20,709 bases of DNA. Origin: Candidatus Thorarchaeota archaeon (GTDB taxonomy: Archaea > Asgardarchaeota > Thorarchaeia > Thorarchaeales > Thorarchaeaceae). The position numbers were made by a program, and so were the translations under genes. Location: NCBI GenBank assembly GCA_016839605.1, contig JAEOTX010000215.1:1-20709 (forward strand), in the 5' to 3' direction. Within the stretch, counting starts at the first letter, position 1. Every line of letters starts with the position of its first letter. Positions 8,954 to 16,318 of this stretch are shown one piece after another. A model generated the notes under the pieces. The model searched no databases. It was not told the DNA's origin and worked only from the letters and a program-made list of their open reading frames with translations.

Positions 8954-10039
8954 TCACGGTTTCATCTGAGCTAGAATCTCACGCAGCCTTGGTTCTGCAA
9001 GGATTGCGTGTTGAAGCTTGGTCAACAGCTTCGTGATCTCTGCATAGATGACTTGTCTCGGTGGGTCACTGGCTGACTCAGCATTCTGCAATGCTTCTTG
9101 GCACTGCTGATTAATTCTCTTTATGATTCGTTTCTCCAGCTCGGGACCGCCCCAGCCAAATGAATCAAAGCTAGCATGTGCGCTTGATATCTTGTCCTCT
9201 ACATTGAATTCTTTCTCAGTGAGTATATCTACTACTCCCGTGAAGTATTTGGCCACAGCGCGTTCTATTCGTTCCATCTCGGATGGGTTCAGATGATTCT
9301 CCTGTGGGCGCTTCTTGGAAAGGTCTTGGAGAAGTCTTGCCCCTGGTGCTTCCGTTAGTAGGCCTTTCACAATCTTGACGAGTACCCTACCAGGAAGCTC
9401 TATCACATCTCCATAGTACGGTGAGTCTGATCGATACTTATGCAGTTCTCTGAGAGTATCAACCCAGAAAGTAGGTAGAAGGACATGACATCGCTTGCTG
9501 TAGGATGTAATCATCCTCTGCATCTGCCCTATGAGACCCCACTCGTCATTCTCAACTTGCACTTTTCGATATGGCTCAACGGGTGCTTCAACTTCATCTC
9601 CGACAAGTGGAATCACTCCTGAATCAGGAGTCGCCTGAGTCTGAGCTGCAGTTGCGGTGCCTGAAGATGGAGTGGCTGTAGCTATTACTGCTTTGCTCTC
9701 ATCCAACAGTGAGAGAATCTCTGCCGCTGGCGCTCCCTTGGCTTCAGCCTCTTTCGCCTTTGCTGATAGCTTGGGGAGTAGACTCTCAATCTGGGAGAGC
9801 CTCTTTACAATTAAGCTGATGATATTCTGTGTGGATGGAGTGACGTTCTTCATGTCTGAAGCCTCTTCCATCCATCGGCGAGTTCTGAGTAGACCTTGAA
9901 TTAGCGAGTCTACCCTATCCGGGTCAACTGTTCCTTCTATCTGGGTGCTTAGAAGAAAGTGAAGGAGAGTAGAATTCAATGTGACAATCAGTAGGACTCT
10001 ATCAAAGAGGTCCTCTGCAATATTCGTTCCTTCAGTCAA
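8954..10039 (-). CDS. Hypothetical alpha-helical protein; third gene of the tubulin-like operon
   Basis: 361 aa, TTG start with GGAGGGG RBS, 19 nt downstream of the tubulin-like gene stop. Two helical regions are joined by an Ala/Thr/Pro-rich linker (ATATPSSGTATAAQTQATP). Confidence 0.8.
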   Translation of the reverse strand: MTEGTNIAEDLFDRVLLIVTLNSTLLHFLLSTQIEGTVDPDRVDSLIQGLLRTRRWMEEASDMKNVTPSTQNIISLIVKRLSQIESLLPKLSAKAKEAEAKGAPAAEILSLLDESKAVIATATPSSGTATAAQTQATPDSGVIPLVGDEVEAPVEPYRKVQVENDEWGLIGQMQRMITSYSKRCHVLLPTFWVDTLRELHKYRSDSPYYGDVIELPGRVLVKIVKGLLTEAPGARLLQDLSKKRPQENHLNPSEMERIERAVAKYFTGVVDILTEKEFNVEDKISSAHASFDSFGWGGPELEKRIIKRINQQCQEALQNAESASDPPRQVIYAEITKLLTKLQHAILAEPRLREILAQMKP

Positions 10040-10058
10040 GTCCGCACCCCTCCTTCAT

Positions 10059-14345: not shown

Positions 14346-14356
14346 GGGATAGAATT

Positions 14357-16318
14357 ATGCCCATCTCTGCAGGAGGCAGCACAGGTGAGGCTTTGCCACT
14401 CGGTCATGAGGTCATTGCCGTCTTAGAGGCGGATGCAGTACATATTGTTCATGATGAGAGGTTTCTATACGCTGCCTGTAGAGACCTAACGGTAAGAGTC
14501 TGGTCAAAGGAAGACTGGCAATTAGTAGCGGAGCTTGGCGAGACAAGCTCGGAGCCCCTTGTAGTACATGTCGATGACGACCAAGTATATGCTACATGCG
14601 AGCGCCGCGTTTATGTCTGGAAGAAAGAAACATGGGGAATGACCGGATGGTTCGAGCTGACCTATCAAGCTGTCACATCCACACTTCAAGGTGACAGTTT
14701 CTATGTGGGAGCTCGTGATGGCAGATTGGTATCAATAAAGAAAGACACTCACGAAACCTCGAGCTGGCAACTCCATAAGTCTGACATCTCAACTCTATGG
14801 TCTGATGATAGAGTCATTCTAACAGGTAGCCGGAAGGAGGAGCCGAGAGCTTGGCTTCATAAGCCTAACACGGCGCCTACTGAGCTCGCAAGGCTGGACA
14901 AGAAGATACGCCCCACTGTCTTCGTTGGCAATTCTGATTATGTAATAATAGGAACTGAATCTGGAGAAATAGGAATTTGGGATAGAGTTGAGTGGCAGCT
15001 CATCAGGACTCTCCAAGATAAATCCTCGAACCCTGTAGTATCCATGTGGTCAAACAGCACGTTTCTTGTTGCGGCTATGAACTCAGGTCTAGTCTCAATA
15101 TGGGATCTCCTCAAAGGTAATGAGATGGGCCGATTCCTAATGGAAAATGAGAAGATAGGATATATTGAAGCAGACAATCTTCACGTATATGTGATTGGAA
15201 GCAGCGGAATCAAGGTCATTTCCCTGACTATCGGTGAGGTTCCTCTCGACTTGAGTATGTCAAACGAATCTCGATTTGGCGTCAGTCTACTGAGAACTTC
15301 TCCTTATGATGTACTCGAGTCTGTACTCGTATTTCAACGGCAGGGTGATGGGTACTTCGAAGAGGGAAATCATCAAGATGCAGTAGCCGCATACGAGAAG
15401 GCTTTGCAATATCTGATTGACAATACACATGCATTGCTGGAGGTCCCGGAGGAACGGCAGCAGCTCACAGAAGAGTTGAATGACCAACTGGGGAGATCTC
15501 TACTGAAGTCGAAAATACAAGAGCTAGGGCAGCTTACGGAACGGATTACAGAGATTTCTGCACAGATCGAGCCCGATACCCAGGTACGCCTTCAAGATGA
15601 TATGGTTGACAAACTATGGGATGAAACAGCCAGGGCCATCAAGGAGAGCCGAGTATTATCCGATGCTCAAGCGGGCAACATTCTCAGCTACCAACTGACT
15701 GATGCTGCTGATACGCTCGAGGCTGAACTCGGCGACGCCATGGCAAAGGTCACCATATACAGAGAAACGATCAATCAAGCAATTACCTTGACTCATGGGA
15801 TCATGAATGAATGGCGTTGGATGGAACGAAAGAAGACAAGCCTCAATGAGCGAAAGGCATTCTTAGAGGAGGCCATGGCAAAGATAAGCGAACGACTCAA
15901 AGAGGCGGAGCCTGGAAGTGAAGTGGAGTCAATACTAAGTGATGCACTCGACGAACACAGGCGTGTCTTCTCACAGATCAGCCGCATCATTGAAGCTACA
16001 GTGACTGATCCTAGGGATGAGCTTGTCAGTAAGGAAGAAGCTGCGGCAGCCATAGAGGGCCTTCTCAGGATATTGCCTAAACGTAGAGAAGCTATCGAGA
16101 AAATGACAGATACGAAGGAGCAGAAGGTCGAGACAGAGCGGCTCCAAGGTGCACTGCAACAGGCGCTTGCATCTGCTAAAAAGTTTAAGATGAAGGATGA
16201 GCAGAAAATCATCCAAGATCTGATAGATGGGATTGAACCTCCTAAGACAAAGAAGCGAGCCAAATCAACCAAGAAGAAGAAAGCTAAGACGGCGAGCAAG
16301 AAGACAAAGGCTAGCTAG
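14357..16318 (+). CDS. WD40 beta-propeller protein with MIT/TPR-like helical bundle, helical C-terminal region and Lys-rich tail
   Basis: About 7 WD-like blades (ACRDLTVRVWS, TCERRVYVWK, GARDGRLVSI, HKSDISTL..GSRKEEPRAW, GTESGEIGIWD, AMNSGLVSIWD, IGSSGIKVIS), then GDGYFEEGNHQDAVAAYEKALQYL...PEERQQL. Ends KTKKRAKSTKKKKAKTASKKTKAS. The true start may be TTG 14393 (GGTGAG RBS just upstream). Confidence 0.85.
   Translation: MPISAGGSTGEALPLGHEVIAVLEADAVHIVHDERFLYAACRDLTVRVWSKEDWQLVAELGETSSEPLVVHVDDDQVYATCERRVYVWKKETWGMTGWFELTYQAVTSTLQGDSFYVGARDGRLVSIKKDTHETSSWQLHKSDISTLWSDDRVILTGSRKEEPRAWLHKPNTAPTELARLDKKIRPTVFVGNSDYVIIGTESGEIGIWDRVEWQLIRTLQDKSSNPVVSMWSNSTFLVAAMNSGLVSIWDLLKGNEMGRFLMENEKIGYIEADNLHVYVIGSSGIKVISLTIGEVPLDLSMSNESRFGVSLLRTSPYDVLESVLVFQRQGDGYFEEGNHQDAVAAYEKALQYLIDNTHALLEVPEERQQLTEELNDQLGRSLLKSKIQELGQLTERITEISAQIEPDTQVRLQDDMVDKLWDETARAIKESRVLSDAQAGNILSYQLTDAADTLEAELGDAMAKVTIYRETINQAITLTHGIMNEWRWMERKKTSLNERKAFLEEAMAKISERLKEAEPGSEVESILSDALDEHRRVFSQISRIIEATVTDPRDELVSKEEAAAAIEGLLRILPKRREAIEKMTDTKEQKVETERLQGALQQALASAKKFKMKDEQKIIQDLIDGIEPPKTKKRAKSTKKKKAKTASKKTKAS

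Follow-up and report, generated by a model that had tools for sequence, protein, structure and literature searches.

Tubulin-superfamily filaments of Asgard archaea bear on the origin of the eukaryotic cytoskeleton, and work on them has so far centred on FtsZ1/2, OdinTubulin and AtubAB. A CetZ-like Asgard paralogue group was named Asg.Tub by Santana-Molina, del Saz-Navarro & Devos (2023; PMC9871819), who placed it between CetZ and the tubulins, outside CetZ proper, and reported that its C-terminal hidden Markov model matches no other family. The published set consists of four sequences (KXH77455.1, OLS30664.1, OLS26264.1 and PWI48967.1), and the supplement of PMC9871819 gives as sources Thorarchaeales SMTZ1-83 (KXH77455.1), Thor AB-25, Heimdall LC-3 and B3-JM-08. 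The same paper describes the genomic context of the tubulin-like groups, including Asg.Tub, as unknown genes, mostly with coiled-coil regions. We found no use of the name Asg.Tub in later literature, and the recent Asgard tubulin and FtsZ papers show no discussion of Asg.Tub or of its neighbour genes. Here we analyse a stretch of 20,709 nucleotides from a Candidatus Thorarchaeota archaeon (GCA_016839605.1, contig JAEOTX010000215.1; the window), in which a tubulin-like GTPase gene lies between two co-oriented genes, P1 and P3, with a WD40 gene, P4, divergent to them. We conclude with moderate confidence that a three-gene cytoskeletal module, specific to Asgard archaea and inherited vertically, is built around an Asg.Tub-type GTPase and that the locus is its Thorarchaeal copy.

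The window GTPase is assigned by its sequence to the Asg.Tub group as an orthologue. The supplement sequence of KXH77455.1 is nearly identical to it at the N-terminus and matches it in the motifs, and a Thor AB_25 and a Heimdall LC_3 homologue were found among its matches. The GTPase family is therefore not new: it is published but uncharacterised, whereas the partner families and the operon logic are new. Neither a conserved operon nor partner families are described in PMC9871819, and it mentions no phyletic co-occurrence or co-duplication. A preliminary description of the window, made from its sequence, did not recognise the arrangement as described; this stands for the operon as a system but not for the GTPase family, which had been published as Asg.Tub.

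The three genes of the operon and their two junctions are as follows:

11464-14154, minus strand: P1, open reading frame (ORF) of 896 aa with a TTG start, first gene of the operon (ORF list)
10059-11444, minus strand: tubulin-like GTPase, ORF of 461 aa with an ATG start (ORF list)
8954-10039, minus strand: P3, ORF of 361 aa with a TTG start (ORF list)
11445-11463, minus strand: P1/tubulin junction of 19 nt, with the Shine-Dalgarno-like run GAAAGGGG
10040-10058, minus strand: tubulin/P3 junction of 19 nt, with the Shine-Dalgarno-like run GAAGGAGGGG

The two spacers read GTGAAAGGGGACATAACTA (11445-11463) and ATGAAGGAGGGGTGCGGAC (10040-10058), both with a purine-rich Shine-Dalgarno-like run, and GGAGGT is found 7 nt 5' of the P1 TTG start. 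Coordinates and sequences thus agree with the three co-oriented genes of 896, 461 and 361 aa and the two purine-rich 19-nt spacers of the preliminary description. No run of six T was found on the operon strand between 8954 and 14154. Over 73 loci, the estimated gaps remain short but differ in length, the medians being about 31 nt (P1/tubulin) and about 15 nt (tubulin/P3), so that the exact 19-nt spacing is a local trait.

Each of the ten genomes fetched around orthologues has the P1, tubulin and P3 genes side by side and collinear. Among these ten, the tubulin is 43-93% identical; the partners fall to 21-42% in the distant genomes, and to just 21-31% where the tubulin identity is 43-63%. Profile searches found the order P1-tubulin-P3 in 73 of 80 named loci, with labels of Thor-, Hermod-, Sif-, Borr- and Heimdall/Hod-type; six of the remaining seven end at a contig edge, and the last (L080) is a frameshift-ridden contig which still has P1 remnants. 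P1 and P3 therefore flank the tubulin at every locus with enough flank, across several Asgard classes. A divergent P3 match of 602 aa, used as the starting point, led again to the triad, with a P1 of 1311 aa and a tubulin of 449 aa. Two of the metagenome-assembled genome records have unreliable taxon names: L027 is titled Hermodarchaeota, yet its tubulin is 95% identical to that of the Thor window, and L096 is titled Odinarchaeota, yet it groups with Hermod-type loci at 62%. In a single-contig genome of the same genus (G004, L023), 366 N interrupt the P1 orthologue, which appears shortened, and P4 and its neighbouring tetratricopeptide-repeat (TPR) gene are missing upstream (L023:1-8320); an assembly or masking artefact or a rearrangement is possible.

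In a census of 400 Asgard genomes, the tubulin was found in 124 and P3 in 123. By family, tubulin and P3 were present in 74 and 73 of 85 genomes of f1, both in 20 of 22 of f18, in 15 and 16 of 19 of f12, and both in all five of f32 and all four of f15; neither was found in f9 (0/135), f5 (0/31), f14, f20 and f26. The few mismatches between tubulin and P3 are fragmented genomes, and in the census rows listed with both matches P3 adjoins the tubulin on the same contig. By the preliminary description, its proposal would fall if the partner genes were not conserved beside GTPase orthologues; P1 and P3 are conserved there, by the 73 of 80 loci and, for P3, by the census, and the WD40 gene is not, outside part of one family.

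A second tubulin copy was found in eight genomes of f18, which are large and Hodarchaeales-like. The three loci inspected (L106:9420-15178, L107 and L108) show a P1 paralogue of 1140 aa about 13 nt upstream of this copy. The maximum-likelihood trees of tubulin and of P1 are in agreement, each placing the copy-2 clade as sister to the Heimdall/Hod-type copy-1 clade, with a support of 99/98 for tubulin and a Shimodaira-Hasegawa-like approximate likelihood ratio (SH-aLRT) support of 100 for P1, whose tree is from a quick search; the f6 and f8 branches are long. The Thor, Borr and Hermod groups are recovered alike in both trees, and the gene trees follow the lineages. Because the two trees agree, the P1-tubulin pair has been inherited and duplicated as a unit. 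Furthermore, all three genes are under purifying selection, with a nonsynonymous divergence (pN) of 0.10 for tubulin and 0.22-0.27 for the partners against a synonymous divergence (pS) of about 0.8, which is saturated, selection being given for this reason as pN versus pS; for P1 the values are 0.24-0.27 versus 0.83-0.87.

Other genes were observed near the Hod-like loci. Upstream of the copy-2 P1, in L106 and also in L107 and L108, there is a conserved ORF of 311 aa without known family; hhalign gave probabilities of 0.4% or less for this ORF against P3, for this ORF against P1 and for P3 against P1. In two of the three inspected loci, the second Asg.Tub copy lies tail-to-tail with a gene of about 740 aa that encodes an N-terminal small GTPase domain of the Gtr1/RagA type (PF04670, E 9e-31; L106:7150-9369, plus strand, and L107:10379-12601, minus strand). 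At a Hod-like copy-1 locus (L109:2296-5491, minus strand), a CDC48-type double AAA ATPase and a MoCF-biosynthesis-domain gene are divergently upstream of P1, and L110 shows a MoCF-domain gene upstream as well.

The 461-aa protein matches the Pfam family Tubulin (PF00091) with an E value of 2.4e-20 and 74 bits against a cutoff of 33. The ftsZ equivalog TIGR00065 is weak on it, with 36 bits against a cutoff of 295, and a Pfam search at E values up to 1 found neither FtsZ_C nor Tubulin_C (PF03953) and, besides PF00091, a weak PF13809. By sequence it thus lacks both what defines FtsZ (equivalog level, FtsZ_C) and what defines a bona fide tubulin (PF03953, T7 of the form NxDxxE/K). Its membership of the tubulin/FtsZ superfamily is clear from the GTPase domain with T1 and T4, the two-domain fold, H7 and T7. 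Across 20 aligned family members, with identities down to 42%, T1 (GIGECGSN) and T4 (GGGTGCGG) are invariant, the latter with Cys replacing the Ser/Thr of the signature GGGTG(S/T)G. T7 (P279-T-T-D282-L-A-D285) is invariant in the same alignment, with P279, D282 and D285 all kept, and is of the FtsZ/CetZ type TxDxxD, not the tubulin NxDxxE.

The tertiary structure was modelled with AlphaFold2 (AF2), with a mean local confidence (pLDDT) of 82 and a global score (pTM) of 0.84. The T7 motif lies in the model between the core helix H7 (241-266) and H8 (283-289), in the canonical order H7-T7-H8. Foldseek gave OdinTubulin as the best match of the model (E 2e-18), and VIA structural alignment gave Z scores of 32.9 (CetZ2) and 32.6 for CetZ, 31.9 for beta-tubulin, 31.9 for BtubA, 31.1 for Atub, 30.8 for OdinTubulin, 28.4 for TubZ and 27.5 for FtsZ. 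The alignments with CetZ, tubulin, TubZ and FtsZ structures cover 300-368 residues of the model; its last two helices (to residue 453) are aligned by tubulins only and correspond to tubulin H11/H12. Aligned by sequence to solved structures, the protein matches in the N-terminal GTPase domain only, CetZ being the best (E 5e-10, or 1.3e-12 with a profile), and its identity to tubulins is 13-17%. As regards membership of CetZ, the sequence matches to CetZ are restricted to the N-domain and the structural Z is level with that of tubulins. Alignment and model together show a variable, family-specific insertion of about 40 residues between H6 and H7.

P1 is acidic, poor in Pro and Gly and without a hydrophobic segment. 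It shows no Pfam or NCBIfam family, its profile found nothing below E 0.007 among PDB sequences, and its relatives are all Asgard proteins annotated as hypothetical; the ESM Atlas features search gave its own Thorarchaeota cluster only. When the P1 profile is aligned with itself by hhalign, 619 columns match off the diagonal, shifted by about 155 residues (probability 92%, E 6e-7), although the composition of helical proteins alone can yield such signals. This is the strongest off-diagonal signal, in place of the 65-aa repeat period read earlier from the window. The length of P1 ranges from 896 to 1311 aa, Hod-type versions being 250-400 residues longer, and the self-match at about 155 residues fits tandem helical repeats and this extra length. 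Judged from these sequence features, P1 is probably a rod of helical repeats of about 150 aa.

The AF2 model of P3 shows a three-helix bundle (4-101), a disordered linker rich in Pro, Ala and Ser (102-150) and a helical C-domain (160-358) with a pLDDT above 90. W296-G297 and E302-K303-R304 are invariant in the P3 alignment, and the extreme C-terminus (P-R-L-R-E-I-L-A-Q-M-K-P) is conserved. The P3 profile, searched exhaustively against 1.84 billion representative proteins, yielded 47 relatives; 45 of these reach an E value of 1e-10 or better, and there is no tail of distant ones, so that the family is closed within that search. Foldseek against PDB found nothing below E 0.4. By shape, matches in ESM Atlas reached a TM score of 0.47 at most, except for a 65-residue helix pair, and Atlas features stayed below 0.9. 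A wide VIA alignment and a second VIA pass gave generic three-helix bundles on residues 1-110, at Z scores of up to 11.5, under the helical noise. P3 thus has no significant fold or sequence relative, the wide aligner having barely reached the C-domain. A complex prediction for the tubulin-like protein with P3 scored 0.00 against a mark of 0.32, which is no verdict, neither for nor against binding.

The upstream side of the operon has the following features:

14155-14356: divergent intergenic region of 202 bp, with both TTTTATA boxes of the window inside
14201-14207, minus strand: TTTTATA box on the operon side
14299-14305, plus strand: TTTTATA box on the side of the WD40 gene
14357-16318, plus strand: P4 (WD40 gene), ORF of 653 aa, divergent to the operon (ORF list)

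TTTTATA occurs twice in the 20.7-kb window, both times in the 202-bp spacer, with one copy facing each gene at about 47 and 51 nt from the start codons of the operon and the WD40 gene, respectively; a scan of the whole window found none within the operon. The single TATA-like box over the operon of the preliminary description is therefore confirmed, one box facing the operon. Two copies per window were reached in 36 of 100 shuffles, which is the chance level, and it is therefore the placement of the boxes, not their number, that is informative.

The divergent gene had been described as WD40/MIT-like. Residues 28-285 of P4 match 33 Pfam families, mostly of propellers, with E values of 1e-10 to 1e-3, each below its curated cutoff, and weak TPR/MIT signals span residues 326-375. 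On residues 335-374, MIT (PF04212) reaches 15.6 bits against a cutoff of 30 and TPR_2 reaches 24 bits on the same stretch; the head-to-head gene with sub-threshold WD40 matches is thus retained and the MIT label is unproven. P4 ends in a polybasic tail with 14 Lys/Arg in 24 residues, and is predicted to consist of an N-terminal WD40-type beta-propeller, a helical C-terminal half and this tail; the architecture is superficially like that of propeller-plus-solenoid coat proteins. At 42 loci, every one of them from the closer Thor type, the divergent neighbour is P4. Another 19 loci have enough flank to show it but lack it; among these are four with a Thor label and the loci of all other classes. 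Its orthologues were found in family f1 only (33/43), and none in two triad-bearing f1 genera or in f2, f12, f15, f18 and f32. Because it is confined to part of one family, P4 stands outside the core as a lineage-specific addition, for which a functional link via the shared promoter region is plausible. A gene for a 213-aa TPR-repeat protein (16311-16952, minus strand) converges on P4 with an 8-nt overlap at the ends and stays beside it in Thor loci, and the two may be a pair of their own.

The host genome (Thorarchaeota, Asgard) has 3.08 Mb in 259 contigs and is 80% complete. Two canonical FtsZ genes are on other contigs of this genome (C80:46213-46692 and C45:4279-4758), in open frames of 426 and 401 aa. 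Around the operon, the window has ordinary genes of metabolism, namely purL/purQ and those for an HDAC-type deacetylase, a CoA ligase, an FMN dehydrogenase and an amino-acid kinase. With these metabolic neighbours, no TubR-like ORF and no centromere repeats in the window, the context is, as first described, unlike that of ftsZ loci or TubZRC. A defence system was considered and dropped, there being no PADLOC match.

For the cytoskeletal module proposed here, the fold, the motifs, the synteny, the co-occurrence, the co-duplication and the purifying selection are observed. Asg.Tub would most likely form GTP-dependent homopolymeric protofilaments, since all nucleotide-binding loops and a T7 of FtsZ/CetZ type are present, and such a polymer would be self-activating because both T7 acidic residues are conserved. 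The gene packing suggests that one promoter and translational coupling would lead to co-expression of P1, Asg.Tub and P3. P1, and P3 at the main locus, would act on or with the polymer, given their strict linkage, coupled packing, co-occurrence and co-duplication. We propose P1 as a scaffold or ruler running along the filaments or bundling them, whose length would change by whole repeat units, and P3 as a two-domain adaptor that might cap or recruit the filament. Several points weigh against the proposal. Polymerisation, the binding of P1 and P3, the shared transcript and the individual roles are all things we infer. None of the four proteins shows a membrane anchor or a transmembrane segment that would position a filament. 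The H6-H7 insertion is modelled at low confidence and may affect longitudinal contacts. No P3 was detectable after the second P1-tubulin pair in the three Hod-like loci inspected, so that P3 is not obligatory for every Asg.Tub. Finally, the helical-rod nature of P1 is deduced from its composition, its self-similarity and the coiled-coil remark in PMC9871819.

Asg.Tub could instead be a third FtsZ-like ring protein working with FtsZ1 and FtsZ2, with P1 and P3 as lineage-specific division factors. Its T7 of the type TxDxxD, shared by FtsZ and CetZ, the FtsZ-family CetZ proteins as its closest solved relatives by sequence, and the frequent subfunctionalisation of archaeal FtsZ paralogues (PMC9871819) fit such a role. 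We regard it as unlikely, however, as two canonical FtsZ genes are already present in the genome, the module finds no match in large Asgard families that divide by means of FtsZ (such as f9, 0/135), and the locus is outside the translation/ribosomal-gene context typical of archaeal ftsZ (PMC9871819, section 6); in addition, CetZ, the closest family, works in cell shape and not in division, according to Duggin (2015) as cited in PMC12583498. Because two canonical FtsZ genes are present elsewhere, a separate cytoskeletal system, or one of shape and organisation, is a likelier role for the module than the divisome. A role of Asg.Tub as the GTPase engine of a coat- or sorting-like membrane-remodelling or trafficking system would have its analogue in the Halo_adaptin ESCRT system of haloarchaea, in which a non-canonical CetZ-like protein occurs together with WD40/PQQ-propeller 'adaptin-like' proteins (Makarova et al. 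2024, PMC10936438). Besides this precedent, the propeller, helical region and polybasic tail of P4 in many Thorarchaeota and the Gtr1/RagA-like gene tail-to-tail with the second copy in Hod-like genomes would suit it; but P4 is limited to part of one family, the window has no ESCRT, Vps4 or membrane protein, none of the four proteins has a transmembrane segment, and the Rag-like neighbour is beside the second copy only, tail-to-tail in two of three loci inspected, which makes this role quite improbable.

A third alternative would keep P1 and P3 as a scaffold and make Asg.Tub a regulatory or nucleating GTPase upon it, by analogy with gamma-tubulin or Misato, that does not polymerise. We give it little credence: the long branch, the unique H6-H7 insertion, a C-terminal domain without a match to the Pfam models Tubulin_C and FtsZ_C and the presence of gamma-tubulin among the best structural matches agree with it, but both T7 acidic residues are invariant, a conservation to be expected only of a polymer in which each subunit activates the GTPase of the next. 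DNA segregation of the TubZRC kind, for a plasmid or an integrated element, is an extremely unlikely role for the locus. The structure of TubZ matches well (Z 28.4), but the window shows no small DNA-binding TubR-like gene, iterons or centromere repeats, its only repeat being one 27-bp chance array; furthermore, the chromosomal housekeeping-gene context is conserved across genera, the gene trees track lineages, and there are no defence or mobile-element matches.

Returning to the three-gene cytoskeletal module, a bolder form of it, which we put forward tentatively, is that Asg.Tub, P1 and P3 would make up a third cytoskeleton of the tubulin superfamily in Asgard archaea, separate both from FtsZ1/2 and from the Odin/Atub tubulins. 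It would go back to the common ancestor of Thor, Hermod, Borr, Sif and Heimdall/Hod, and its filament would carry two dedicated non-enzymatic partners, a giant repeat-built 'ruler' and a flexible adaptor. If this is true, the module would be a prokaryotic forerunner, in kind and not in ancestry, of the organisation of eukaryotic filaments with microtubule-associated proteins, in the closest archaeal relatives of eukaryotes. The module adds another widespread lineage with two conserved orphan partners, found in 124 of the 400 Asgard genomes sampled, Hodarchaeales-type ones among them, and could reveal how accessory proteins joined tubulin-like filaments before eukaryotes. It is directly testable because its genes are few, soluble and tightly defined.

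Among the systems described, TubZRC resembles this locus as a tubulin-superfamily GTPase in an operon with dedicated partners, TubZ aligning at Z 28.4; in contrast, this locus has neither TubR nor centromere repeats, and is chromosomal and vertically inherited. The Halo_adaptin system (PMC10936438) shares a CetZ-like GTPase in a lineage-specific multi-gene system with beta-propeller proteins, whereas this locus is without Vps4, ESCRT-III and Ig-like proteins and its propeller protein, P4, is an add-on of the Thor family.

CetZ (Duggin et al. 2015; PDB 4b45, 4b46, 3zid) is the best sequence match and has the top Z scores (32.9/32.6), shows a T7 with two acidic residues as well, and coexists with FtsZ1 and FtsZ2. 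Unlike CetZ, Asg.Tub carries an insertion of 40 aa between H6 and H7, and only tubulins align with its two additional C-terminal helices; by sequence it aligns in the N-terminal GTPase domain only, and the published phylogeny places it outside CetZ; CetZ genes have not been reported with P1- or P3-like partners. If Asg.Tub were merely a CetZ-like shape-control paralogue, the partner families would still be new. OdinTubulin (7evb) and AtubA/B (9f6t, 9hxc; PMC13394414, PMC13371889) are also Asgard-encoded with a full-length tubulin fold and are the top Foldseek matches (E about 2e-18, TM 0.62-0.70), and AtubAB is likewise a tight operon. They differ in an identity of 15-17% and in T7, which is NxDxxE in them and TxDxxD in Asg.Tub; Asg.Tub is one paralogue and not an A/B pair, is found in Thor, Hermod, Borr, Sif and Hod, and has non-tubulin orphans as partners. 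In BtubA/B-BtubC of Prosthecobacter, the Btub proteins form a heterodimer and BtubC is TPR/kinesin-light-chain-like, whereas P1 and P3 have no TPR or Pfam match; the likeness to this locus lies in a prokaryotic tubulin-superfamily operon with a non-tubulin helical-repeat stabiliser (PMC9871819), and BtubA aligns with the Asg.Tub model at Z 31.9.

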